Of a DNA stretch of 37,028 bases, positions 1,614 to 36,426 are shown in pieces. A program made the position numbers and the translations under genes. How positions within the stretch are numbered: the stretch's first letter is position 1; every line of letters begins with the position of its first letter. Location of the stretch: the IMG/VR virus record IMGVR_UViG_2690316076_000004, one strand, 5' to 3'. This DNA is from a virus (taxonomy: Duplodnaviria > Heunggongvirae > Uroviricota > Caudoviricetes). The notes beneath the pieces are model-generated. The model was not told the origin of the DNA. It ran no database searches and saw only the letters and a list, made by a program, of their open reading frames with translations.

Positions 1614-1653
1614 GCCCCTATCGTTATAATACGCGGTAGGGGCGTTTTTGTTT
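1614..1653 (+). terminator. putative intrinsic terminator
   Basis: GCCCCTA...TAGGGGC stem followed by GTTTTTGTTT. Confidence 0.5.
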
Positions 1654-1662
1654 GGAAATGGT

Positions 1663-3342
1663 ATGAAAACTAAACTGTATTCGTATATTCGCTTCTCGTC
1701 TATGCGTCAGAATGATGGTTCGAGTTATGAACGACAAATCAGGATGGCGAGAGAGGTTGCGGCAAAGTATGACCTTGAACTGGTAAATGATTATCAGGAT
1801 CTGGGTGTATCTGCGTTTAAGGGTGCTAACTCTAAAACAGGGGCGCTATCTCGTTTCCTTGATGCAATTGGTAGATCCGTTCCTGTTGGTAGCTGGCTAT
1901 TCATTGAAAACTTGGACCGCTTATCCCGTGCCGATATTGTCAGTGCGCAGGAGTTATTCCTTTCAATCATCCGTAGGGGGATAACCATTGTTACTGGCAT
2001 GGATAACAAGATCTACTCGCTGGATACTGTTACCGCTAACCCGATGGACCTGATGTTCTCCATCCTTTTATTCATCCGTGGTAATGAGGAAAGCCAGACT
2101 AAGCGCAATCGTACTAACTCAAGCGCACTGATTAAGATTAAAGCTCATCAAGAAAATCCACAAAATCCGGCAGTGGCAATCGAGGAAGTTGGAAAGAATA
2201 TGTGGTGGACTGATACCACTTCCGGTTATGTGTTGCCTCATCCTACATACTTCCCTGTTGTTCAGGAGATTGTGGAATTACGGAAGAATGGACGTTCAAC
2301 CGCCGAAATACTGGATCACCTTAACGAGACATATACACCGCCACCAGCAGTAAGCAACAAGAAGCATTCAAAATGGTCACGGGCAATGGTTGAAAGGTTG
2401 TTCCATACCCGCGCTTTGATTGGTATCAAGGAAGTCTCTGTAGATGGTGTTAACTATGAGTTAAAGGATTATTACCCTCGTGTTATTGATGATGCTACGT
2501 TCTATCACCTTAAGAAAAATATTGGTGCTAGAGCATGGAACTTTGGAGACAAGGAAGAAGTTAAACCGATCCCCCTGCTTAGTGGTATTGGCCTATTGAA
2601 ATGTGATCATTGCGGTTGCGCTATGGTTAAAGTGAAGGGAACGAACAAACGTTCTGACCAGTATCGTTATACATGTGATGCGACCCGTTCACGTAGACTT
2701 GATTGCGAGCATCCAAACTGGAGTTTTCGAGGTGATCAATTAGAGAAAGCTGTATTGCAATTGCTGGCTGATAAAATATGGATTGCTGAGGACAAGGCTA
2801 ATCCGGTTCCGGCGTTGAAAGTACAGGTTGATGAAATATCACGCAAGATTGATAACCTGATTGCCCTTTCTGCTATGACAGGAGCAACGAAGGAGCTAGC
2901 CGATCAGATTACTACCCTCAATAGCGAGCGTGAAACACTCTACAATCAGATCAAGATGGCAGAAGAGGAAATGTATTCTGTGGACTCTCAAGGCTGGGAG
3001 AAGCTCGCAGAATTTGATTTAGAAGATGTTTATAACGAGGAACGACTAAAGGTCCGGTTTAAGATTAAGCAAGCTCTAAAGCGGATCGGGTGTAGCAGGA
3101 TTGACAGAAACAAAAACTTGTTTGTACTGGAATACATCGATGGAAAAACCCAGAGAGTTGTAATAGAAAATTCAAGAGGAACGAGGAAAGGCCGGATCTT
3201 CATTGATTTGAAGACTATCAATGATAGGCAGATTCTGGAGAGCAACGGGCTTGTTCTGCATCCATGTTTAGACATGCTGACAGATAAGAACTGGAAACCA
3301 GAAGAGGAAATACCAGGTCCATTACAGGAATTTGGAATTTAA
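1663..3342 (+). CDS. large serine recombinase (resolvase/integrase family)
   Basis: N-terminal resolvase catalytic pattern (YSYIRFSS...Q), recombinase domain, Cys-rich zinc ribbon (CDHCGC...CDATRSRRLDCEH), C-terminal coiled-coil; track start at 1648 is TTG, ATG at 1663 preferred. Confidence 0.85.
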   Translation: MKTKLYSYIRFSSMRQNDGSSYERQIRMAREVAAKYDLELVNDYQDLGVSAFKGANSKTGALSRFLDAIGRSVPVGSWLFIENLDRLSRADIVSAQELFLSIIRRGITIVTGMDNKIYSLDTVTANPMDLMFSILLFIRGNEESQTKRNRTNSSALIKIKAHQENPQNPAVAIEEVGKNMWWTDTTSGYVLPHPTYFPVVQEIVELRKNGRSTAEILDHLNETYTPPPAVSNKKHSKWSRAMVERLFHTRALIGIKEVSVDGVNYELKDYYPRVIDDATFYHLKKNIGARAWNFGDKEEVKPIPLLSGIGLLKCDHCGCAMVKVKGTNKRSDQYRYTCDATRSRRLDCEHPNWSFRGDQLEKAVLQLLADKIWIAEDKANPVPALKVQVDEISRKIDNLIALSAMTGATKELADQITTLNSERETLYNQIKMAEEEMYSVDSQGWEKLAEFDLEDVYNEERLKVRFKIKQALKRIGCSRIDRNKNLFVLEYIDGKTQRVVIENSRGTRKGRIFIDLKTINDRQILESNGLVLHPCLDMLTDKNWKPEEEIPGPLQEFGI

Positions 3343-5573: not shown

Positions 5574-6257
5574 TTAAACGTATTTCATGCGCGATTTAAT
5601 GTGCTTATTGATGTTTTCAAGCATCATTGCTTCGTTGCTTTCCCACGATCCTAGCGTCGAATAACGAGTAGAAATTTTATCCGATTTAACGGCAACAATT
5701 CGCTTGCTCTGTTTCTGTATGCGTTTCTCTAAGCGACGTTTTGCCACCGCCGATCCATTCCTAGCGCGTTTGGTTCGGGATTTCTTAGGCTTGTACTTCT
5801 TCATGATAAAAGTCCCTTCCTTGTTCTCTACCTTGATGAAGTTGCCGTTTTCGAGGTTACGCATCATCTTACCGCCTTTGATGGCCTTAATGTTCCCGTG
5901 GGCGTCTAAGACCTTACCGTTGGCGATTGGAACTAGCTTATTGATTTTGCCCCCATCGAAATAGTGTTTCAGATAGTCGTCCTGACTGCCGATCTTCTTA
6001 TCCTTATCCCTTGCGCCCTTGATGAAGATTTGGTGTCTCGTCCCTGATCGGTTCTTGTAGTTGGTATTACCTACAGCTTGCTGAGTCCAGCGAGTAGGTC
6101 TATCAACATTCTTGTTAATCTTCTTCTGGAGTGCTCTGGAAGCAAAGATCGCCCCTTCCCCTAGTGCCCTTTCGAATGTATCGGTTGCCTTTTCAGACCA
6201 TTGCCGTAACGCTTTCTTAGTCCTTAGAGCGTTTCGTTTATTGGTACTGGTTGCCAT
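5574..6257 (-). CDS. hypothetical basic (Lys/Arg-rich) protein
   Basis: 227-aa ORF with AGGGGG RBS; strongly basic composition. Confidence 0.55.
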   Translation of the reverse strand: MATSTNKRNALRTKKALRQWSEKATDTFERALGEGAIFASRALQKKINKNVDRPTRWTQQAVGNTNYKNRSGTRHQIFIKGARDKDKKIGSQDDYLKHYFDGGKINKLVPIANGKVLDAHGNIKAIKGGKMMRNLENGNFIKVENKEGTFIMKKYKPKKSRTKRARNGSAVAKRRLEKRIQKQSKRIVAVKSDKISTRYSTLGSWESNEAMMLENINKHIKSRMKYV

Positions 6258-6832: not shown

Positions 6833-9800
6833 TTAAGAAACAGAAATACCAGTAGCGGCTTTCTTAGTTACCATTACCGTTAGATCGCTGATATATGCAC
6901 TTGGGTTATAGTTGTTAACGCCCTTACAGTAAACTTCAAAAGTCATTGTTACTGCCCCGTGTCCGGCTGGCATGTCAATAACTCCACTGTACATACAGCC
7001 AGAAGTTGCAGTGCGATCATATAGAACACCACCATTTTTCTTAACGATTAGTCGGCAAGTATCCCAATGATCGCTACTTTCGCCACGACGAACAGACCCG
7101 TTATGATGAATCGCTGGAATCACTATTTGGCGATCGAATGGATGATCATCTTCGACCCTTACAGTGATTGCACCATCAGGCCAGTTTGGTTGGCGATGTG
7201 GGAAACTCCTACCAACCACTTTCACGAAGTCACCACGCACCTGATTAGCATCAAGCATACCCAAAATGCGGCAACTTGAATTAATCGTTACGTTGTTCAT
7301 TTCGCCGGAATCAGCCACCAAATGACCACGAATATTAGCGTGTCTAAAATGACAAGTGCCATCTTTGCCGATATACCATCCATCGTTACCATTCCAGTTA
7401 TAAGACTGGATATAGTTACCAATTTTAGCATTATCGATAGAGCCATCAATGATATGACCTGTTCCGATCTGTGCGTGTTGGATGTGAGCGCCGTTAATCT
7501 GGGCTGTGCCGATCTTAGCCGTGGTGATACTAGCATCACTAATCTGGGCTGTGCCAATTGCAGCATTACGAATCATCGCATTATCAAGATAAACTTTGTT
7601 ATCTTCGATGCCAAACGGACAAACTTCTGATCCGTCTTGTGGAGCTACCGCGATTTTATCAGCCGTAAAGATGATTCTTGTCGGTTCTGCCGGATCATTG
7701 GTTGCGCTCATATGAATACCAGCCACGCGACCATCTGCATTAACTGCCAGATTATATTTGCTGTTAATGGTTCCCTTCAAAGCATCGATTTTTACATCTG
7801 CTTCCTGATTCACACCAGCAATCTTGCCATCCATTTCTACCCGAACTTGATCAATCTTACTTGCGCTTGCTGCCTCACTGGTAGCAATTGCTTGTTTCAG
7901 GGTAGTAGCGGATGCGCTAACTTCTTTGGTGATATCGCCTTTCAGTTCAGCTTTAACCTGATCAATCTTAGTTGCGCTGGCTTGCTCACTGGTAGCAATC
8001 AGACTCTTGAGAGTATCGGCTGAGGCTTGGACCGTCTGCCCTGTCTCGGTAGTAATCTGTTTATGCATTGCATCAATCTTAGCATCGGCATTAGCGCCAG
8101 CTTGAGCAATAGCATCCGCGATGGTTTCATCTAAGCGATCTTGTAAACCAATCAGGTCTTCCAGTGCTTCTTTGTCCTGATCGTCCCAGCTAATGGTAGA
8201 TTTCATTTGCATGAAATACGGTTCAGACCAAACAGCATCATCCATACCGAAAATATCATAGTGAGCACCACGGATATAATAATCACCGTCAGCCAAATCA
8301 AAGGAAGTATGACTAACGCTATTGGTAGTCACTGCCCTTGCATCGGAGAAAGTATTATCGGTTGCATACTGGATGATTGACCCTGCATAGTCATGTTCTA
8401 CGTCATCCGCCCAGCTAACAAACGCAGTATTAAAGCCACCACGCGCACTAAAACCTTTCATCGGCTTATGTTGTGGGTTGATAGCCACTAAACGCGCTGG
8501 GGCGCTCTCTGAGTTGTTATAGCCCTTGACTGATACTTCTACCGTCAATTCACGGGAAAGGCCGTTAAACTGGTTCATATCAAGCGTATAAGTCCATGAT
8601 TCAGGATCGCGGGTACGGTACTGAATAGACTTACCAGCCTTGTTAGTTACCTTGATAATGTATGCTTCAAACAGGTCACTAAACTTGTTAGCTTCACCGT
8701 TGATCATCACATCTAATTGTTGCTGATTTTCCCATTCGATAATCAGATCATTGCCTTCGAAAGTACCAGGGGAGCTACCCTGATTTTTGATTCGAATAAC
8801 CGGAGTCGGCAATTCATAGGTAACAGTAGGATTCTGGTTAACCAGTTCCACCCATTCGGAACGAGCAATAATACCGAAAGCACAAACGCGGTAATCGTAG
8901 GAGCGATCTTTTGCCAGTGCATTGATATTGAAAATTTGCTGTGAAGTCTGTCCCAGCTTAATCCAGTTAGGTGATCCACTCACACGATAATCAATCTGGA
9001 AACCGTAGCGGTTGAAATCTTCCGGTGCATCCCATGTCAAAGTTACGTTTTTACCGTGGATGGTTTCACCAGTTGCCTTAATTCTGAAATTAGTAGGCTT
9101 CTGTACTGTCATTGAATCCGGTAAACCACTTGGTCGGTTATCTGGGTTAGCCGCATAGTTTAGGTCAGTATAAACCTGAGAATTATATTCTGTAGCGGTG
9201 ATAGTCATCATCCCAGCAATACCAGAATCAATAGAGCGATCAATTGCAGTAATACGCCAAAGTGAATTATTCAGTTTTAATTCATCATAGGTTACGCTGA
9301 TAACGTCCCATACTTCGGCGGTGAATGCGTCAGTAGTCATAAAGCTGATAACCTGAGTGATACGAGATTTATTTCGTTCTACACTCGCAAGTTTATCAAT
9401 CTGGGCTTTAGACTTAACAAAACGATATTCAATATCTTTAGCGATAATTCGACCATCTTGACGAATAGTAGCATCGTTTTCAGCATCAGCCGGATAACGT
9501 AGCATTTGCTCTGAATAGTCGATTGATGGTTCTTGATACATCGCGTTAATGGTATTGAAATAACCGTTAGTGCCACCTGTTTTCAGTGATACTTTTCCCA
9601 TCATGATATTGTCTTCATTGAAGGTATGCTTAACAATATCAGGAGCATCCAGTTTCAGCGTAATACGTCCAAAGGATTCGAACATCACCCCGCCGAAAGT
9701 CTGCATAAGGCTAGTTAAGTTCTCTTTAAAGCTGGCGTTCGGATCACATGCACCGTTGGAATGTAAATCCATCTGGCGTACTTGTTTACGCACTTTCAGG

Positions 9801-17829: not shown

Positions 17830-20800
17830 TTAACCAAATAATTTTGCTTCAATAGCAGCAAGACGTTCACGAAGGATTTTATTTTCTTCGCTCATTTCTT
17901 GAATTGCTTTGATTAAAAGCGCGTTCACTGCGGAGTTTGAAATTGTTAAAATCTCTTCTGGGTTATCAAGACCACCAATTTTTGCGGTTTTAACAGCTTC
18001 CGGTAATACCTCTTGTAAATCCTGTGCGATAATACCAATCTCATGACCTATAACTTCTCGGTCATTAAGAGATTTAACTTTATCGTAGGTTTTAACTTTG
18101 AGTTTATTTACCTTATCTACCGCATTTTCTTCGTAGTCTTCAACATTAATTTTCAGACGACGGTCGGAACGAATATACACATCGTTAAAGTTACCATTAC
18201 CTGGAGAATAGAAAGTGCCATCATGATGGAACTCGTAGACAGCTTGAGGATGACCAGCAGCAGGTGAGTTTTCCGCAGATCCAACACGAATAATTGCTTG
18301 TCCCCAATTGTTGGGGACACGACGCATACCAAAATCGACGGCAGTTGTATACCCTTGATTGGTTATTAAACTTCTTCCTTTGATAATCGGATAATAACAG
18401 TCCTGTGAAACATAACCATGATCGACGAATATTGGAGCTTCTAATGACCATTGGTCATTCCATGCGCCAGATTGGCTAGCAGTCCAACGTTCACCGTGAA
18501 CATAGAATCGAACGTTATTGACATGAGTCATTTCGACGCCTTTCGGACTTAGCGCGATATCCCCCGCATTTGTAATGTTTATGGCAGCATTAGTAGCATA
18601 GCTATAGAACGCTAATCCATTATCAGCGCCACCTTTACCGATATACCAGTTGTTATTATCAGCACAAGTACCCAACAAATATATAGACGAATCTCCACTT
18701 TCGGCATTCATGATGATTGCGTCAGATCCACGATTAACTTTCAGTTTCCCGAAAAATGTGTTTTTAATGGTATTATCACCCAATCGTTCAAATTCTGCGA
18801 AAAATCCTTTTGAGTCACGAAGACTTAAAACGTTATTTCGACCTGTATTGCTTGCCCCCCAATGGACGAGTTCCATATAGTCCATAGATTGACGAGAACC
18901 AGCTTTAAACAAAAGGTTGTCTTCGAGACGAGTGCTACCATCAATCCCAAGATGTAAACACCGAGCGGTCGTTGTGCCCCCTAGATCCAATCCACCCTCA
19001 GCGAAATCATAACTAAATGGTCTACGATTATTCCAATTTCCAAAAGAATCTTTTAAATCGGTAGTCAGTATATGGAAACCAGTACCATCATTTCTAAAAA
19101 TTAAGCCATAATTGCCACCTTTAACAGCCAAACGCGCATTTTCAGATAATGCAACTTCGCTATTCATTACAATTTTCTGGCCTTTACCACCAGTAATATG
19201 TAATTCACCATCTTCAATCAGGTTTATCGAGTTTTGACCGTTATCGTTCCACCAAATAAAATCTTTGGTCTGACCATCACCGAAGCCAAACCAGCCATTA
19301 CGAACATCTGTACCAGTGCGATAATCAAAGAAGTTTAAATGACATGATTCATTTGGACCACGACGAAAATCAATTGCTGAGTTTCCACCTAAACCGCCAT
19401 CAATGGTCATTCTACGAATATGCAAACCGGATGCAGCCGACAGCAATAATTGTTGGTTTACATCATCGTATCCAGTAGCAAGACGATAATTCTGATCATC
19501 TACAGTTTCATGCCAGATAGTAGCGGGTGCGGAACTACGGAAGCGACGCAACTTTTTCTTAGCATTTGTTTGTTGTTCGTTCAAATGCTCAATGTCATAT
19601 TGGCCTTGATGGTTTCCACCAAAATTTAACGTTCCACGGTTGCTAAAGTTATTGAATGATGAAATGTTAAGAGCATCAAAAATTTCATCTGCAACAGGTT
19701 TTTCACCACCCAGATATTCAGGAGTATCCAACAGGTTTAAAGAAACACCACCGGACGAAACTTGATATTCTGCTAAAACAAATCCTGTATGTGCACCGTA
19801 GTAAGCGTAAAGATCGTAATTATCGCCATCGGTAGGAATTGCGCAAAAATATTGTTCGTAATACCAAATGCTATAATAAGCATTGAATACAACACCTTTC
19901 GGGCTATTGTTGCCGCAACGGATCACCAGTTCAATAACATTGGCTTGTCCATTCTGTCCGACGTTATAACCGTTACCACCAACCAAACGAATCTTAGCGG
20001 TGCGACCGTGTTGTTGTGGCATTGTCAAAGTGCCTAGTTTAAACCAACCGCCCTCGATACCAAAATTAAGCGTCTTCTGGAACAGTCGGTCAATTTCTGC
20101 TTTCGAATATGCGCCAATTTCGGCAGGAGTAGGTTTATCACCTTCATGATACATGCGGTGAGAATATGCCAAATGACCCAATTCATCATAGCCGTATGTT
20201 CTTACCGTAGCATGTGGATTAGACCCATAAGTGAACTCAAAACCACGAGCATGATTAACACCGGATGGATGTGGAACATGCAAGATCATAGCAATATGAT
20301 CAGCTAGATCATTGGTACGGAATGCACCAAAGTAATCAAGATTACGAGCACCTGGATCATCAAAATAGTTTGCGGTCTTAGACAGCAAATAACCATCAGT
20401 ATAAGTGTTTACGTGTTTTTTGATGTACTTACCGTCACTAGATCCATCGGCTGCATCAATACGGCTTTCTAAACGTGCAAGTTCGGAATCGGTGTAAGAC
20501 TTGTTATTGTCAACTTTGCTATGAATTGCTGAATTTTTGGCTTCAACATCACGGGTTAATGCTGCGACGTTATCCGCTGCCTCTTGCTTATTGGCTGCAA
20601 TCACACCAGTAAGGTTATTGTAGGTGTCAGTTAACTGATTTTCCGCATAGGCTTTATTTGCTGCGATAGTCCGATCAGTCTCGGCCTTAATCAAATCAAC
20701 CTTGTCATTGATTGCTTTGTCATTGCTTGCGATGGTTGCATCGGTACGGGATTTAATATCATCAACTTTTTTATTGATGCGGGTGTCCAGTTCCTGTGTT

Positions 20801-21243
20801 GCTACAGCAGCCGCATTTTTATTAGCGTTGATAGTATCCGACAATTCAGCTTTAACACCAGCAAGGTCGGAAGCAGCTTTATTTTTATTGGCATCGATTG
20901 TCGCGTCGGTTTCGCGTTTAATTACATCAACTTTATTGTTAATTTCTACGTGATTTGCTGCGATGGTTGCATCAGTAGTTTGTTTAATTTCATCTACTTT
21001 AGCGTGAATATTGCGGTCATTTACTGCAATTGTACTATCCAGTTCTTGTTTGTTAGCATCAACTTTAGATTCTAGTGCCGCGTGAGTTTCAGGAGAAACA
21101 GAGATTTGAACTACTTCATGATCTCGGTCTTTGGTAAAAATAACATGGTCTTTAAGGTTGATTGCTACCTCACCGACCTGTAATTGTTCCGGCGTTGGTT
21201 TTTTGCCAGAAACATTTGTTCGTTTAAATTGGATCGACTGCAT
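17830..21243 (-). CDS. side tail fibre with C-terminal intramolecular chaperone (peptidase S74-type) domain
   Basis: C-terminal ~112 aa (SDRRLKINVEDY...AIQEMSEENKILRERLAAIEAKL) matches S74 chaperone-domain pattern, encoded at about 17833-18168; fibre-like repeats in N-terminal third; GAGGTGA RBS. Confidence 0.85.
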   Translation of the reverse strand: MQSIQFKRTNVSGKKPTPEQLQVGEVAINLKDHVIFTKDRDHEVVQISVSPETHAALESKVDANKQELDSTIAVNDRNIHAKVDEIKQTTDATIAANHVEINNKVDVIKRETDATIDANKNKAASDLAGVKAELSDTINANKNAAAVATQELDTRINKKVDDIKSRTDATIASNDKAINDKVDLIKAETDRTIAANKAYAENQLTDTYNNLTGVIAANKQEAADNVAALTRDVEAKNSAIHSKVDNNKSYTDSELARLESRIDAADGSSDGKYIKKHVNTYTDGYLLSKTANYFDDPGARNLDYFGAFRTNDLADHIAMILHVPHPSGVNHARGFEFTYGSNPHATVRTYGYDELGHLAYSHRMYHEGDKPTPAEIGAYSKAEIDRLFQKTLNFGIEGGWFKLGTLTMPQQHGRTAKIRLVGGNGYNVGQNGQANVIELVIRCGNNSPKGVVFNAYYSIWYYEQYFCAIPTDGDNYDLYAYYGAHTGFVLAEYQVSSGGVSLNLLDTPEYLGGEKPVADEIFDALNISSFNNFSNRGTLNFGGNHQGQYDIEHLNEQQTNAKKKLRRFRSSAPATIWHETVDDQNYRLATGYDDVNQQLLLSAASGLHIRRMTIDGGLGGNSAIDFRRGPNESCHLNFFDYRTGTDVRNGWFGFGDGQTKDFIWWNDNGQNSINLIEDGELHITGGKGQKIVMNSEVALSENARLAVKGGNYGLIFRNDGTGFHILTTDLKDSFGNWNNRRPFSYDFAEGGLDLGGTTTARCLHLGIDGSTRLEDNLLFKAGSRQSMDYMELVHWGASNTGRNNVLSLRDSKGFFAEFERLGDNTIKNTFFGKLKVNRGSDAIIMNAESGDSSIYLLGTCADNNNWYIGKGGADNGLAFYSYATNAAINITNAGDIALSPKGVEMTHVNNVRFYVHGERWTASQSGAWNDQWSLEAPIFVDHGYVSQDCYYPIIKGRSLITNQGYTTAVDFGMRRVPNNWGQAIIRVGSAENSPAAGHPQAVYEFHHDGTFYSPGNGNFNDVYIRSDRRLKINVEDYEENAVDKVNKLKVKTYDKVKSLNDREVIGHEIGIIAQDLQEVLPEAVKTAKIGGLDNPEEILTISNSAVNALLIKAIQEMSEENKILRERLAAIEAKLFG

Positions 21244-27191: not shown

Positions 27192-29099
27192 TTAGAACGA
27201 TGTTACCCAGCTACGGCCTCTATTTGGGCGTCTGGCGATGTTTTGACGTTGCGGTCGTGTGATTGGCTTAGTTTCTTCTATTTGCTCGTCAGATTGCGAT
27301 TTAGGAGCTTCTACGGATTCTTCGACAACACGGTTTAAGCTGTCTTTCATTGCAATGAGTTTATCCCATGACATTTTTGAAAGAACGTAGCGAGAAGCAG
27401 CATAGCTATAAACCAGACAGTCGAGAGCCTCGTTTCGGGTACTACCTGGATTTTTCACCCAACGCACGCCAGTAGTAGTACGCTTGATGGATTCACTCAA
27501 AAGCTGATCGAGATAATCATCAGGAACGGTTTCTGATATTTCTAAGCCAATATGAGGATTATCTTTCAGGTTTCTAACCAGCATTTCACGAACAGCGGAT
27601 TTCCCAACGTTAACACCCAGCATAAGCAATTCATGACCACCTGTACGGGTAGGTTTAACCGGAATCACTGGAGCATTACCAGATGAACTACCTTTGATAG
27701 CGTGTAGGTTCTTCCACTTGCCGCAAATACGGTATCCGGCTTGAGTGAATCGACCGTTCGATGTATCAAGGAAACTGGCGAGCATTGGTACACGTTCACC
27801 ATTAACGTTATAGAATTTGGTTTTCTTGAAGTTAACCAGACGATCCCAAACAGGTGATTCATATCGTTCACAGTTATGATCGTAAAAGCTGCGGTGATCC
27901 AGAATGTAAACCTTATCTTTCGCTACACCTAAGATGGTAGATTCTGCGCGGTCCAATTGCTGGTCAATTCCTGAGCACAAGAAAATCACGTCATCAGGGA
28001 TATTCTCGATAGAAACATCTGTTTTGAGTTGTTCCAGTTCATTTGCTTCTACTGCCGTGTCCTGATCGTCGTATACCTTGCCTAACACGGTGTTATAAAA
28101 TGATTGTAAATCAAAGGATTGCCACGCATGGCTAAAATCAACAACACAAGCGCGGATCGTGCTGAAAGGTGAATACAGACGGCTAATCCAGAATCCAGCT
28201 ACTTCACTTTCTCTCGTTACTCGCCATTCACCAGCAGCCACCGCCCTGATCCGCTCTCCTTCTGTCCATGCGTTCTTACAGTGGGGGCAAATATAACGAG
28301 CGGTATCAGGATCGGGTAAGTTCTTACCATCGATGTTACGCCATTCAAATTGAACGTTTTCCCACTCGATCACCTGGTGTTCCCCGCAATGAGGACACGG
28401 AACAAAAAACATACGCATATCGCTTGATAACCATTGCTGGTTAATGCTTCCGAGCTTACTGGTCGGGGTGCTGGATACGACTAATCGACCTTCATCGCCA
28501 AAGGTAGTTAAACGGTTAGCAGCCAGTGCCACCGGATCACCTTCTTCTGAGGCTGTAGCAGCATCGATTTCGTCAAGTAATCCAACCTTTGCGGTCTTAC
28601 CGCGTAGGGTTGATGGACTGGTAAGCGATACCATGTAAAGGAAGTGATTCGTTTTTAGCTGTAGCTGGTTATTGTTGTTAACCGCATTGCGATCATTCTT
28701 GTCTGTAACAACGTCTTTTAATGCATCACATGCTTCGATAGACGGTCGGATCTTACCAGCGAGATATTGAGACATTTCTTTAGCGGTTGATTGTCCGATA
28801 ATCATATTGCATGGATCGTTAGCCATCTGGTTAAACAGGATACCGTTCAGGATGGTAGTCTTTCCGATCTGTGCACTGGTCATCAGGACATACTTTTTCT
28901 TGTTCTCAAGGAAAGGTGCATCAATCATGCCTTTTTGGAATGACAACAATTTAACTTTATCCCCAGCTTGAGGACCATCTACCAGCACCATATTCGCTTC
29001 GCACCATTCAGACGGAAGGAGTTTAGGCGGTGGAGTGATATATTTTGCGGCATTTTTAAGAATCTTTTTTAATTTGGCCTTGTTCGAAATCAGTTTCAT
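27192..29099 (-). CDS. terminase large subunit, lambda gpA-like
   Basis: [26 protein letters not shown] (Walker A-like), [21 protein letters not shown] all mirror remembered gpA motifs; ATG at 29099 with GAGGG RBS preferred over track start 29174. Confidence 0.93.
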
Positions 29100-29142
29100 G
29101 TAATTACCCTCATTACGAAATATGAAGGTATTTATTAAATTG

Positions 29143-29170
29143 TTGATATTTTGATAAATACGGGTATTAA
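29143..29170 (+). promoter_or_regulatory. candidate sigma70-type promoter in divergent terL/HTH-gene intergenic region
   Basis: TTGATA (29143-29148), 16-nt spacer, TATTAA (29165-29170), about 15 nt upstream of the 29185 ATG. Confidence 0.35.
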
Positions 29171-29184
29171 TCAAAGGGGGTTGT

Positions 29185-29787
29185 ATGCTAATTAATCAGC
29201 AAGAAAGAGATGAATTAGAATTAGCCTTGTCTTGTACCGATCATGAATATCGTTTGCCAGTTAAGCACCATCACAAGAAGACTGATTACACAACATCCGG
29301 CTTTAGTCGCGAGGAAGCGAAGCAAATTTTAATAGAGTTGTATCGCGATCAGGGATATACAGATATTCACAACTTCTTTAAGAAGCACCGAACATCACAG
29401 ACAGAGTTCCAGAGAGTCCGTGAATGGTTTGATTTTGATATCAAGCGTTATTATCGAGTGGATGACGGTCCGATCTATCGGTTGCAGTGGACACCGATCA
29501 GGGAAGTGTTGAAACAGAAGAGACTAAATCACGCTATTACACGCTATCGTAACGTGGCTTTTAAGAAAGGATATGGTGATACAAGGGAACTATTCGTTGA
29601 ACTCGCTAACGTGCGATATAGCCATTATTACAGGAATCCTAAAGAGTTCTTCGAAGTGCTGCGCAAGGTTGATATAAGTCGGGGTACATACTATTCACGG
29701 TTGAAGAAGTACGGGATTAAGGCAGAGTTCTTTATGAGTATTGACGATGGAGAACTTTTTCCGATAAAATGTAAGTCCTCTAAATAA
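29185..29787 (+). CDS. HTH DNA-binding protein (C-terminal resolvase-type helix-turn-helix)
   Basis: C-terminal [15 protein letters not shown] resembles Hin/resolvase-type HTH; AAGGGGG RBS. Confidence 0.5.
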
Positions 29788-29815: not shown

Positions 29816-30046
29816 ATGACTATGACTACTAAAGCTACTCGCGGTCGTCCTTGCCGTTTTGATCGTGAACAACTGGCAGCGATTGTAAAAGCGTACTATC
29901 AAGCACCGAAAGGTAAAGCCGAAAAAGAGCAAGTATTGAGTGAACACGGTATTTCAATCGCTCAATTCTACAAATCACTCCATAAAGTTGATTTGAAATT
30001 CTTTGTTCAGGTTGACGGTGAAATGGTAGAAGCAACAGGAATTTGA
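29816..30046 (+). CDS. small HTH protein, paralog of 33578-33757
   Basis: RGRPCRFDREQL ... GISIAQFYKSL parallels MARPVKFTREMI ... GIDRSGFYKLM in the 33578 gene; GGAG RBS. Confidence 0.5.
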   Translation: MTMTTKATRGRPCRFDREQLAAIVKAYYQAPKGKAEKEQVLSEHGISIAQFYKSLHKVDLKFFVQVDGEMVEATGI

Positions 30047-31726: not shown

Positions 31727-32185
31727 TTACAGCATATCTAAGCCTTCATCGTAACCGTAGAAGCCATTCTGAGAAGAGAAACAGATTGGAGCGTAGTCTT
31801 CGTCTTCCTCATCTTCTTCATCTTGTTCTGGGGCTTCCTGAGCGGGTTGTTTACCGTAATCAGCCATAATCTGGTCAAGATCGGCGATCCCATAGTAAGA
31901 GCCTAAATCAACATCGTATTCACGAACATCAAACGGCAGGTCATCACGAACAATAATTGCTGGTAGATTCTGGTATTGTTCACGATCTTCATCAGTGAAG
32001 CAGTCAACTACCACCGTAGGACGACCATTGCGTTTAAGAGCATAGAAAGCAGTTGAATAGTTGGAGTCTTCGGAATGACGAATGATGTTATAACCACGAT
32101 TAGCGAAAACTTCTAGCATATGGAAGTTGCCGTAGTTTTCAGAGTCCAGACCCAGAAGTACGAAAGGAGTTTTAGTATTGATCAT
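31727..32185 (-). CDS. acidic protein (C-terminal Asp/Glu run)
   Basis: 152-aa ORF with AGAGGA RBS; C-terminus EAPEQDEEDEEDEDY. Confidence 0.55.
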   Translation of the reverse strand: MINTKTPFVLLGLDSENYGNFHMLEVFANRGYNIIRHSEDSNYSTAFYALKRNGRPTVVVDCFTDEDREQYQNLPAIIVRDDLPFDVREYDVDLGSYYGIADLDQIMADYGKQPAQEAPEQDEEDEEDEDYAPICFSSQNGFYGYDEGLDML

Positions 32186-32766: not shown

Positions 32767-33010
32767 TGCCCCTCGCTAAGTTAATGTTTTATAAAGAGTT
32801 TTTCTCACCAATTCCTTTCAGGGGCAAATTTCAGGGGCAAAAATTAGATTTTCAGGGGCAATTATTGGCATTTCAGGGGCAAAAATGAGGGGCAAAATCA
32901 CCGTTTCCCAGAATTTCAGGGGCAAAAATATAGGGTTTCAGGGGCAAAAATGGGATGTGGAATCTAGGGGATTTTGGTTCAGGGGCAAAAATTCAGAATT
33001 TCAGGGGCAA
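32767..33010. repeat. iteron-like array of TTCAGGGGCAA
   Basis: exact 11-mers at 32817, 32830, 32851, 32872, 32915, 32937, 32978, 33000, variants at 32886 and ~32963, one inverted core at 32767-32775; spacing mostly 21-22 bp or multiples. Confidence 0.85.
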
Positions 33011-33100
33011 TTCCCATCAAATATTTTGATAGAAAATTCCTGTATATTATTTAATCAAAAAATCACCAAAAAGCGGCGTAAGTTAATGATTTAAAAAGAA

Positions 33101-33206: not shown

Positions 33207-33235
33207 TTGACAACTGTCAAGGATTATTTTATACT
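33207..33235 (+). promoter_or_regulatory. strong sigma70-type promoter
   Basis: TTGACA (33207-33212), 17-nt spacer, TATACT (33230-33235); overlaps TTGACAA/TGTCAA near-palindrome. Confidence 0.5.
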
Positions 33236-33371
33236 TTTTCTCACTGGTGGGGGTTGAAATTTTCTAAACAGTCCCCATATAGATGATAAGCAAGAATTTC
33301 CACGTTATAAATACATGTGTGAAATGATTGTTCACTTCTGAAAATCTCCTGATTCACTGCTAATTCATACA

Positions 33372-33400
33372 GCACTGGTTAGATATACAGTGCTTTTTCG
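33372..33400 (+). terminator. hairpin + T-tract (leader terminator/attenuator 1)
   Basis: AGCACTG-GTTAGATATA-CAGTGCT followed by TTTT. Confidence 0.4.
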
Positions 33401-33457
33401 GTTGAATATTGTACGAATTGATTAATAATTAATCTTCTCTTTAGCAATTCGTGCTCC

Positions 33458-33484
33458 CACTGATCGGATATACAGTGGTTTTAC
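33458..33484 (+). terminator. hairpin + T-tract (leader terminator/attenuator 2)
   Basis: CCACTG-ATCGGATATA-CAGTGG followed by TTTTA; same CACTG..GATATA..CAGTG architecture as 33372. Confidence 0.4.
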
Positions 33485-33523
33485 AGGGTTTTCTGAAAAT
33501 CATTTTATAAATACAAGTGTTCA

Positions 33524-33544
33524 GAGCGAAATGCTCTTTTTTAA
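33524..33544 (+). terminator. hairpin + T-tract directly upstream of small HTH gene
   Basis: AGAGC-GAAAT-GCTCT followed by TTTTTT, about 20 nt before the RBS of the 33578 gene. Confidence 0.45.
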
Positions 33545-33577: not shown

Positions 33578-33757
33578 ATGGCTAGACCTGTTAAGTTCAC
33601 TCGTGAAATGATTGTTGATATTGCTAAACGCTTTTACAGCGACACTGAGCGAGGCGGGGAAAACTTCTTTAAGAAGGAAGGAATTGATAGAAGCGGATTC
33701 TACAAGCTAATGAAGAAATACGAAATTCAGGTAAAGATTAACGTTCAAGTTTGTTAA
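33578..33757 (+). CDS. small HTH protein, paralog of 29816-30046
   Basis: ATG at 33578 with TGAGGAA RBS (track start 33563 is GTG); sequence parallels the 76-aa protein. Confidence 0.5.
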   Translation: MARPVKFTREMIVDIAKRFYSDTERGGENFFKKEGIDRSGFYKLMKKYEIQVKINVQVC

Positions 33758-33871
33758 TCCACTTTCACTGAGAATTATATGATGGCTTTAAAAAAGAAAA
33801 AGCCTCCTTTGCTGCAACAAGGGAGGCTTGAAATGAACAATTAAAACTAACTTTCCACAGGAGTATTTATA

Positions 33872-34834
33872 ATGTTATTTTCCGCTAACTTTTTCACTAA
33901 CGAAGTAACCAACGCTAAAGCAGTTATCAAATTTGGCACCGAAGCAAACAAGAAGATTCAGCCGAAAGTTGTTGCTCATGTTTCCTTTGCGCAGCAGAAA
34001 TCCGCTTTCGCTGGCTTTAAAGCACATCGTGAAGCACTGATCGCGGCTGGCTTTGGTGTTGACGGTAAACTGCCTAACGGCATTCGTAAAGCAATCGACC
34101 GCGTTAAACCTGCTAAAGACGTTGCAGTAGACCACATCGTTACTTTCACCGTTAAGAACTCTTCTGAACTGTTCCACCTAGTGATTGCTGGTGATACTGC
34201 TATCGTTTCCGCTCCTAACATGGATTTTCAGGATACCGCTGATTGCAACATTACCTTTGGTCGTCGTAAAGAAGTTACCGGAAAAGCTAAACTGAACTTC
34301 ACCAAATCCGGCAATCCTTACTTTGCTGTATTCTTTAACAGCCACGCTACTGAGAAAGAAGTAGTAGAACTGGTTGCATATGAAGGTGAAGAAAAAGCAC
34401 GTATTGAATCTTGCGACGCTTTCGTAGAACTGGAAGCACAGGTTAATGCTGTTTCTCCGGTTGCTGTTGAAGATCGTTTCTCTGCACTGGAAGCACAGAT
34501 CGCAGAACTGAAAGCTGCACTGAAAGAAAAAGACCAGATCATCGAAGCACAGAAAGCTGAGATTGAAGAACTGAAAGCTAAAGAAGTTGCTCCGGTTGCT
34601 GTTGAAGCAGATCGGGAAGTTGAATCTAAAGACTTCTTTACTCAAGCGGTTGAATCTAAAGACAAACAAGCTCTTTGGATTCTGCTTAACGAAAAGCGTA
34701 CTGTTGCAGACGTTGCAGAATGGAACAAATACCTGATTAAGAAAAATGGTTCTTCCGTTCAATTCATCGATTTAATGACAGTTAAAGTTTTTGATGCGTT
34801 CGAAAATGTGTTCGACGTTCGCAAAGCAGCTTAA
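33872..34834 (+). CDS. hypothetical protein with host-like high-expression codon usage and central coiled-coil
   Basis: 320-aa ORF with AGGAG RBS; codons dominated by CTG, CGT, GGT, AAC, GAC, ACC unlike the AT-rich structural genes; coiled-coil EAQIAELKAALKEKDQIIEAQKAEIEELKAK. Confidence 0.65.
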   Translation: MLFSANFFTNEVTNAKAVIKFGTEANKKIQPKVVAHVSFAQQKSAFAGFKAHREALIAAGFGVDGKLPNGIRKAIDRVKPAKDVAVDHIVTFTVKNSSELFHLVIAGDTAIVSAPNMDFQDTADCNITFGRRKEVTGKAKLNFTKSGNPYFAVFFNSHATEKEVVELVAYEGEEKARIESCDAFVELEAQVNAVSPVAVEDRFSALEAQIAELKAALKEKDQIIEAQKAEIEELKAKEVAPVAVEADREVESKDFFTQAVESKDKQALWILLNEKRTVADVAEWNKYLIKKNGSSVQFIDLMTVKVFDAFENVFDVRKAA

Positions 34835-35871: not shown

Positions 35872-36426
35872 TTAAGACACATCAAATTCATCGTCTTCAT
35901 CTGGTTCTTGTTCCGGTTCATCGATTAATGGTAATTCTTCTTCCTCGTCTTCTCCCAAATCCGCATTTTCGAACAAGTCCCCTACTTCATTTAAACGACG
36001 CTCGATGATCTCCCTTAGCTTATTCTTCAATGTTTTCTGGTCGGTGGCAGATTCTAAAATTTCTAAAGCATCGATTGTGGCGATCTGCAAAATAGTCTGT
36101 TTCACTTTCCCGCAATATTCCGCTAGTTCCTGTTCTACATAACCGACCGGAATCAGGAGGTTCATTGCTTCCTGGTTCTCTCGTTCGGCTGCATCTGCCA
36201 ATGCTCTCTCACGGCGTAATTTCTCTACGTCGATTTGTTCTTTGATGGAAGTGTTTTTTAACGGGTTAATGATGTTCTTTAGCACCCAATCGCAACCTTC
36301 TTTGGCTGGAACACGTCGTGTGTTGGTGTTAAATGGCAATCCCCTTTCTATCCATCGCTTACCGCCACCATTCAATGAATAGCCGTATAAACGGGAAATT
36401 TCTGTAAGGGTTAATTCTTCTTTCAT
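35872..36426 (-). CDS. terminase small subunit, lambda Nu1-like
   Basis: N-terminal LTLTEISRLYGYSLNGGGKRWIERGLPF and EKLRRERALADA resemble remembered Nu1 (QLADIFGASIRTIQNW...RGGGKG... ENEKLRRE); acidic C-terminus; GGAGGA RBS. Confidence 0.75.
   Translation of the reverse strand: MKEELTLTEISRLYGYSLNGGGKRWIERGLPFNTNTRRVPAKEGCDWVLKNIINPLKNTSIKEQIDVEKLRRERALADAAERENQEAMNLLIPVGYVEQELAEYCGKVKQTILQIATIDALEILESATDQKTLKNKLREIIERRLNEVGDLFENADLGEDEEEELPLIDEPEQEPDEDDEFDVS

Follow-up and report, generated by a model that had tools for sequence, protein, structure and literature searches.

The stretch analyzed here, IMG/VR virus record IMGVR_UViG_2690316076_000004 (37,028 nucleotides; the whole of it is referred to below as the window), is a prophage, complete or almost so, that belongs to an uncultured enterobacterial lineage. 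It carries genes for a serine integrase (1648-3342) and an endolysin, a tail module with a tape measure gene and a T4 gp37-like fibre gene, head genes, a gene for a gpA-type large terminase (TerL; 27192-29174), and a block of small early genes without known families. Our subject is a gene of the early region whose 320-amino-acid (aa) product we call the target, together with the control region in front of it, which contains an array of direct repeats; the features of both are collected in Table 1. Gene order is the same for every homologue whose surroundings were recovered: a leftward gene of ~150-220 aa, 1.2-1.6 kb of noncoding DNA, a gene for a 59-60-aa protein resembling helix-turn-helix proteins, the target gene, a slot that is variable or empty, and a leftward gene for a protein like the small terminase subunit (TerS-like). 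The 59-aa gene lies 5' of the target gene in all 11 relatives with a recovered upstream region. The gene downstream of the target was dropped as an obligate partner, being variable in the family and absent from loci L008, L009, and L013.

Table 1. Features of the target gene and its control region in the window (CAI, codon adaptation index)
Feature	Position	Strand	Remarks
Nine direct repeats (iterons), core TTTCAGGGGCAAA(AAT)	32816-33011	+	mostly 21-22 bp apart, in the orientation of the gene
Single heterologous repeat TGGAATCTAGGGGATTTT within the array	32958-32975	+	equals the repeat unit of prophages with a type-2 N-terminal domain
Strong promoter-like site, TTGACA-17-TATACT	33207-33235	+	-35 hexamer inside the palindrome TTGACAACTGTCAA
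Three LexA-box-like palindromes (CTG-N10-CAG)	33355-33374, 33373-33392, 33458-33477		flank the weak promoter-like site
Weak promoter-like site	33402-33429		between LexA-like boxes
Gene for the 59-aa protein	33578-33757	+	likely helix-turn-helix; first in operon; low CAI (0.21-0.37)
Conserved 12-bp hairpin, then U-run	33800-33829	-	between the 59-aa gene and the target gene; compensatory changes
AGGAG ribosome-binding site (Shine-Dalgarno)	33859-33863	+	8 nt 5' of ATG; kept across the family
Target gene	33872-34834	+	three modules (family alignment); highest codon adaptation in the window
N-terminal domain, residues ~1-160	33872-34351	+	basic (pI 9.8, net charge +8), predicted beta-rich
Acidic coiled-coil segment, residues ~196-240	34457-34591	+	local CAI 0.88
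Type-A C-terminal domain, residues ~246-320	34607-34831	+	motif WNKYLIKKNG, end ...RKAA

Homologues of the target are annotated solely as "hypothetical protein" and occur in Escherichia, Shigella, Salmonella, Providencia, and Proteus; the family was found on more than 1000 contigs of Escherichia and Shigella assemblies and, among 5426 complete E. coli genomes, in 38. The match of most copies in these genomes covers only the initial 75-76% of the gene, their C-terminal domain having been replaced. A search of 50,697 phage records with the target gave no nucleotide or protein match. The lineage has no near cultured relative; its best capsid match is 43% identical. An exhaustive search of 1.84 billion representative proteins returned 12 clusters, all of them belonging to this prophage family except for one spurious repetitive protein. 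In E. coli PEC41 the element of the window interrupts ycdX, and a relative adjoins hicAB in strain PD23, where hicB is interrupted, and in locus L006; we found nothing relevant in the literature on ycdX prophages or on LexA together with iterons. A role for the target as a recombination directionality factor was dropped, as the type of its C-terminal domain does not follow the integration site (ycdX and hicB elements both have type A).

The sequence-only reading had picked this gene out for codon choice like that of highly expressed host genes, and this holds up on quantification. With E. coli weights the target gene has a CAI of 0.650, the highest of 40 open reading frames (ORFs) in the window (mean 0.336, standard deviation 0.105); the weights are those of Sharp and Li (1987), on which the exact CAI values depend, and raw codon counts, which are independent of the weights, agree with the result. 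CTG makes up 71% of leucine codons in the target versus 23% in the other window genes, GTT 77% versus 47% of valine codons, and TCT plus TCC 93% versus 42% of serine codons; AGA, AGG, and ATA are at 0%, and CCA/CCC are at 0% versus 33%. When the target protein was re-drawn synonymously 5000 times from the window's own codon usage, CAI was 0.390 ± 0.024 with a maximum of 0.505, leaving the observed value ~10 standard deviations above this control; amino acid composition therefore cannot explain the bias. Nor is the bias GC-driven, since GC content (0.426) and GC content at third codon positions (GC3; 0.353) are equal to or below the window average. The contrast with the structural genes that had been claimed holds against most window genes but not against the major tail protein gene (16360-16830; PHROG major tail protein, E = 4e-20; CAI 0.619) and the capsid gene (protease-capsid fusion; CAI 0.491), which are also codon adapted and rank next.

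High codon adaptation is a property of the family. CAI is 0.55-0.72 in all Escherichia and Salmonella orthologues, whatever their N-terminal and other domain types, and the bias is retained in orthologues of just 20-50% protein identity; for comparison, flanking host genes have values of 0.20-0.41, the TerS-like gene of 0.23-0.34, and the 59-aa gene of the same operon of 0.25-0.36. This argues for sustained selection for translation efficiency. The strong ribosome-binding site that had been predicted is present, and the A/T-rich spacer that follows it, TATTTATA, is conserved in the family. With its conserved CAI and its position in an early control region behind LexA-box-like sites, the target is plausibly the very abundant early protein that was proposed. 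The finding also shows that codon adaptation can single out an important early gene where the rest of a prophage's early region has no annotation at all.

The target protein is built from three modules. A central coiled coil had been expected, and it appears as one long helix (residues 199-237) in the AlphaFold model; the sole Pfam and PDB sequence matches are coiled coils of the GCN4, Jun, and ZapB type, over residues 204-236. The full-length AlphaFold model is poor (predicted local distance difference test [pLDDT] score of 57), and a model of the N-terminal domain only is better (pLDDT 68). Profile and structure searches, which had been suggested as a check, gave no match beyond coiled-coil noise in Pfam, PHROGs, NCBIfam, PADLOC, or PDB, apart from a weak PHROG match to Ant (E = 0.26). 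Two copies of an 18-nt direct repeat, CTCCGGTTGCTGTTGAAG (peptide PVAVE), flank the coiled-coil coding segment at ~34447-34610, one beginning just before it and the other at its 3' end. The coiled coil is shortened in two natural variants, P0023 and P0024, an indication that the repeats may mediate changes in its length.

Across the family, the protein is a mosaic of at least four or five N-terminal types, followed by the coiled coil and then by one of three unrelated C-terminal types: type A, with the motif WNKYL..KNG and the end ...AA; type B, acidic, with ..MLHDEMYGT.F; and type C, longer, also acidic, and ending in GCGIRRRYK. All 21 family members have a basic N-terminal domain (net charge +2 to +13), with a pI of 9.3-9.8 in 19 and of 8.3 in the two Proteus proteins; the C-terminal domain is acidic to near neutral in every member, and the linker/coiled-coil segment is acidic except in the six type-2 members. 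The metagenomic protein P0123 fuses an ORF6N domain (Pfam E = 1.2e-20) to a coiled coil and type-A C terminus 91% identical to those of the target, which fits the N-terminal position being a DNA-binding slot.

The repeat array lies ~860 bp upstream of the target gene, and its motif, TTTCAGGGGCAAA, does not occur elsewhere in the 37-kb window. All ten relatives that cover the upstream region have an array of their own, with 4-10 identical direct repeats at 21-22 bp spacing; the sequence of the repeat varies, and in all ten the unit contains a G-run followed by an A5 tract. Direct-repeat geometry of this kind is typical of iteron origins such as those of P1, F, R6K, and RK2 and of lambda ori.

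The repeat sequence follows the N-terminal domain of the target. Type-1 domains (window, L001, L012, and L013) pair with the repeat TTTCAGGGGCAAA; the 52% identical type-1 domain of L002 pairs with GAGGGGCAAAAAT, which has the same core and new flanks, and the type-1b domain of L010 pairs with TTTCACGGACAAA. Type-2 domains, which are 22-26% identical to type 1, pair with TGGAATCT[A/T]GGGGAT (TGGAATC[TA/TT/CG]GGGGAT over loci L003, L006, and L011), and types 3 and 4 of Providencia and Proteus have unrelated repeats of their own, forming their own domain-repeat pairs. The match is graded: repeats are identical at 77-97% N-terminal identity, and two repeat positions are changed at 37% identity. 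In Mantel tests of protein identity against repeat distance over eight Escherichia and Salmonella loci, the correlation was strong for the N-terminal domain of the target (rho = -0.89, P = 0.0005) and not significant for its C-terminal domain (rho = 0.07), the 59-aa protein (rho = 0.25), the leftward ~150-aa protein (rho = 0.25), the TerS-like protein (rho = -0.08), or a 200-aa protein (rho = -0.19). The last four were dropped as repeat binders on this ground. For the N terminus of Rha the correlation was intermediate (rho = -0.50, P = 0.012); Rha is excluded as the reader of the repeats because three loci whose repeats are identical have Rha N termini of only 31-48% identity. The converse excludes a 76-aa helix-turn-helix protein, which is ~90% identical between loci with different repeats.

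A natural swap gives the clearest case. Between the window and L006, the 59-aa protein is 100%, the TerS-like protein 92%, and the C-terminal domain of the target 87% identical, and the 860 bp from array to gene are 94% identical, yet the array differs and the N-terminal domain and coiled coil have been replaced, with the two N-terminal domains sharing 24% identity. In all 13 further viral contigs that have a type-1 array and sufficient flank, a type-1 N-terminal domain is encoded downstream, and a search of IMG/VR for satellites that have the repeats but lack the gene gave none. On these sequence comparisons, we consider it probable that the N-terminal domain reads the repeats directly. The suggestion of a DNA-binding protein thus gains indirect support, from a basic domain that covaries with an upstream array. 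Every type-1 array (window, L001, L012, and L013) also holds exactly one type-2-like repeat, (T/A)GAATCT(A/T)GGGGATTTT, between copies seven and eight; recombination may have left it behind, or it may serve as the site of another, conserved factor.

Several putative regulatory signals lie between the array and the target gene. Each of the three LexA-like boxes of the window agrees with the E. coli LexA consensus at 13-15 of 20 positions, and box one overlaps box two by 2 nt, an arrangement also seen in colicin promoters; boxes stand at -223, -205, and -120 from the start of the 59-aa gene in six loci, and two other loci have a single box each, with 17-18 of 20 consensus positions. Over all loci, 20 LexA-like sites were found in 19.8 kb of control regions versus 4 in 214 kb elsewhere, an enrichment of more than 50-fold. 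The boxes of the window are downstream of the strong promoter-like site, an element that is conserved in the family at a variable distance from the 59-aa gene (its copy in L011 is at 5574-5602). From this clustering, SOS control of the operon formed by the 59-aa gene and the target gene appears likely, with less assurance than we attach to the recognition of the repeats. A small hairpin with a T-run near the 59-aa gene, at 33523-33542 and thus after the strong promoter-like site, could act as an attenuator.

The hairpin between the 59-aa gene and the target gene is kept in all 13 loci. When each locus sequence was folded individually, the stem was perfect on the minus-strand RNA in 12 of 13, with G.U pairs at the places of C.A mismatches on the plus strand, and a conserved A-rich run on the plus strand, with an invariant AAAA abutting the stem, precedes it and becomes a U-run on the minus strand. 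Because of the perfect minus-strand stem and the U-run, the element looks like an intrinsic terminator of the minus strand, which would imply transcription antisense to the target gene; Rfam gave no match in the window. A mini-ORF at 33779-33844 (MMALKKKKPP...) overlaps the hairpin, and its reading frame is not conserved. In L002 an insert of ~200 bp (7690-7860) lies between the 59-aa gene and the target gene and contains three perfect DnaA boxes (TTATCCACA) and AT-rich repeats; other loci lack it. The 59-aa gene itself has few alleles across genera (90% identity, for example, between an E. coli and a Providencia prophage), and its product resembles the 76-aa helix-turn-helix protein (29816-30046) in the manner of a paralogue, both having (R)P.(K/R)F(T/D/N)RE near the N terminus; these small helix-turn-helix proteins move independently of the domains of the target.

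The reading that we favor, at a probability of roughly 0.45, is that the target binds the replication origin, and acts as its initiator, in an uncultured family of temperate siphophages whose hosts are Escherichia, Salmonella, Providencia, and Proteus, and that this initiator is SOS induced, abundantly made, and a member of a new protein family. DNA damage would relieve control by LexA, and possibly also by a phage repressor, of the operon of the 59-aa gene and the target gene, and the target would then be made fast and in large amounts. Its basic N-terminal domain would bind the nine phased repeats, the coiled coil would pair or oligomerize the bound molecules, and the exchangeable C-terminal domain would bring in a partner from the host or the phage, such as the replicative helicase machinery, at the moderately AT-rich DNA next to the array. 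The likeness to an iteron-type origin comes from phased repeats with in-phase A-tracts, the repeat specificity of the N-terminal domain, the exchangeable C terminus, and dependence on host machinery; the last would follow from the absence of any match to helicase, primase, polymerase, loader, O/P, or Rep families among the window ORFs that were scanned (the large and early-region ones). If this reading is correct, the N-terminal domain is probably a new DNA-binding fold.

Several observations weigh against an initiator. The main difficulty is the codon usage: initiators are normally scarce proteins, and the CAI of the target equals that of the major tail protein, unlike classical Rep or O, which needs a special argument. 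Abundance might be explained by one-shot stoichiometric use on many genome copies, by rapid turnover, or by the need for speed upon induction; the ...AA ends of type-A domains recall ssrA-like ClpX signals, which is only a hint of proteolytic control. The origin signature is also incomplete. Enrichment in AT beside the array is moderate (70-72% versus a background of ~64%), and DnaA boxes are enriched in L002 alone, so that they are not conserved in the family and were dropped as evidence for an origin. No half-repeat was found at the promoter, and there is accordingly no sign of autoregulation; no protein match to the target was found in 72,556 plasmids. The regulatory logic is ambiguous as well: 4 of 12 loci have no LexA-like box, and in L011 and L012 the box is upstream of the strong promoter. 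Finally, the covariation comprises about five repeat types from related, nonindependent genomes, with repeat consensus sequences that we derived ourselves.

Comparison with known systems shows the same mixture. As in lambda O and the other lambdoid initiators (P22 gp18, phi80, and 82), an early gene encodes a protein whose N-terminal part sets the repeat specificity and covaries with the repeats and whose C-terminal part is an exchangeable module, there for recruiting a partner. The target differs in having no sequence similarity to lambda O (no match to Phage_rep_O in Pfam, PHROGs, or NCBIfam, and only coiled coils in a PDB profile search), in an N-terminal fold predicted to be beta-rich and not winged-helix, in repeats that lie 860 bp upstream and not inside the gene and number nine and not four, in the absence here of a P-like partner gene, and in its extreme codon adaptation; lambda O is made continuously because it is unstable. 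With the Rep proteins of iteron plasmids (F RepE, R6K pi, P1 RepA, pSC101 RepA, and RK2 TrfA) the locus shares direct repeats of ~16-19 bp, spaced 21-22 bp apart in one orientation beside the gene, and the replicon would rely wholly on host replication proteins. It departs from them in that Pfam and PDB sequence searches of the target gave no Rep_3 or WH1-WH2 homology, that no inverted half-repeat overlapping the promoter was found and DnaA boxes are not conserved, that the family has no member among the plasmids searched, and that plasmid Reps are scarce and rate limiting whereas the target is seemingly made in bulk. The target thus behaves like an O/Rep-type initiator, yet every sequence and fold comparison places it outside the O/Rep families; we infer that it is an iteron-binding, modular phage early protein from a new family. 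Predicted boxes in front of a gene that would start lytic growth recall CTXphi RstA (under LexA and RstR), 186 Tum, N15 AntC, and Gifsy GfoA/GfhA, prophage genes behind SOS boxes that are triggered by cleavage of host LexA, and direct LexA control of the target would parallel that of rstA; unlike these, the target shows no homology to them, and the box layout varies in its family to the point of absence in the four loci mentioned.

The leading alternative, which we regard as unlikely though the best of the rivals, is that the target is a repeat-bound transcriptional master switch or antirepressor-like regulator that, after induction, turns the divergent early operons on or off, or displaces or titrates a phage repressor, and so acts on transcription and not on replication. 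The array does lie within a 1.4-kb control region between divergent early operons, and in its layout, a DNA-binding domain followed by a coiled coil and a C-terminal tail, the target would resemble the Mu repressor. Through P0123 the same coiled coil and C-terminal domain are joined to ORF6N, which is typical of Ant/KilA/Bro-type phage regulators; these regulators likewise consist of an N-terminal DNA-binding module, a coiled coil, and a variable C-terminal effector module, and the weak PHROG match to Ant points the same way. Antirepressors under LexA control are, moreover, known from 186 (Tum), N15 (AntC), and the Gifsy phages, and titration of a repressor requires an abundant protein. The target itself, however, has no ORF6N, KilA-N, Bro-N, ANT, KilA-C, or ORF6C domain detectable with Pfam. 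The distance from the end of the array to the closest strong promoter is ~196 bp, and that to the leftward gene is 630 bp. Operators do not usually take the form of 5-10 identical direct repeats at two-turn spacing, and of the candidate repressors tested (the 59-aa, ~150-aa, 200-aa, 76-aa, and Rha proteins), none covaries with the repeats.

An abundant architectural or partition-like protein, which would nucleate on the repeats as a centromere or condensation site and coat or bridge phage DNA through its coiled coil in the manner of ParR/TubR or phi29 p6, is less probable again. Very high codon adaptation would fit a stoichiometric need, the coiled coil could bridge bound molecules, and type II and type III partition sites are typically direct-repeat arrays; but this prophage is an integrating one and encodes a serine integrase, the scanned window ORFs include no motor of the ParA, ParM, or TubZ type, and the target has no similarity to ParR, TubR, or ParB and no plasmid homologues.

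The proposals that the target is a single-strand annealing or single-strand-binding (SSB) protein, or a recently host-derived highly expressed gene, fared poorly, and we consider them very improbable. Red-beta, Erf, gp32, and gp2.5 are highly expressed and have a modular C terminus, and the acidic C-terminal types B and C recall SSB tails. Against this, Pfam, PHROGs, NCBIfam, PDB sequence, and fold searches of the target gave no match to RecT, Red-beta, Erf, Sak, Rad52, or SSB, there is no gene for an exonuclease partner, and repeat-specific covariation would be unexpected of such proteins. A recent host origin is contradicted by high CAI as a trait of the family across diverged orthologues; GC and GC3 are phage-like and not E. 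coli-like, and no homologue was found in hosts or plasmids outside this one prophage lineage. Least probable of all is a small terminase subunit whose N-terminal domain binds cos or pac repeats, whose coiled coil oligomerizes, and whose C-terminal domain binds TerL: the layout and the covariation mirror lambda Nu1 with cosB, but we rejected this because TerL N termini that are 100% identical pair with different C-terminal types (L006, type A, with L013, type B; L003, type A, with L011, type C), C-terminal type and TerL are uncorrelated (Spearman rho = 0.04), a separate TerS-like gene exists (PHROG E = 1e-10), and the target sits in an early operon with LexA-like boxes.

Should the target be an initiator as we propose, a family of "hypothetical proteins" would gain a testable function and a defined DNA target, and the few known repeat-binding initiators would be joined by a new family. 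The matched protein/repeat pairs already display at least five specificities and might serve as orthogonal DNA-binding or replicon parts, and the induction of this prophage group may be readable directly from host LexA. A more ambitious version is doubtful, although it is less so than the switch alone: in it the target would be both master lytic switch and replication initiator, its N-terminal domain an unrecognized beta-rich fold for sequence-specific DNA binding, and the lineage a widespread, uncultured one that lacks a recognizable repressor or replication gene and is wired to host LexA, exchanging replicon specificity through the N-terminal domain with its repeats and partner specificity through the three C-terminal domains. 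A codon signal has led to a concrete and testable system of protein-DNA specificity, of inferred function, in a common but unstudied prophage lineage.

Other features of the prophage deserve mention. The sole TerS-like gene (35872-36426, minus strand; PHROG 57) stands 6.7 kb from the large terminase gene in a separate operon, which ends in two tandem minus-strand terminators (35334-35318 and 35233-35214). Two helix-turn-helix-like genes on the plus strand (29185-29787 and 29816-30046) form a cassette that directly abuts the terminase gene. A very acidic 152-aa protein of no known family, with the tail ...DEEDEEDEDY..., is encoded by the first gene of the divergent leftward operon (31727-32185, minus strand). 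The CAI of this gene is also elevated, at 0.47 in the window and 0.44-0.60 in the Escherichia and Salmonella relatives, and the protein could be another early product made in abundance, possibly a DNA mimic. Within the tail module, an ORF on the minus strand (11045-11815) strongly matches homing endonucleases (PHROG 314, E = 3e-31). The tail fibre gene (17830-21243, minus strand) has up to 84% nucleotide identity over 2.8 kb to the gp37-like distal subunit of the long tail fibre of T-even phages such as KFS-EC, a similarity that indicates recent exchange of receptor-binding modules between a temperate siphophage and T-even lytic phages.

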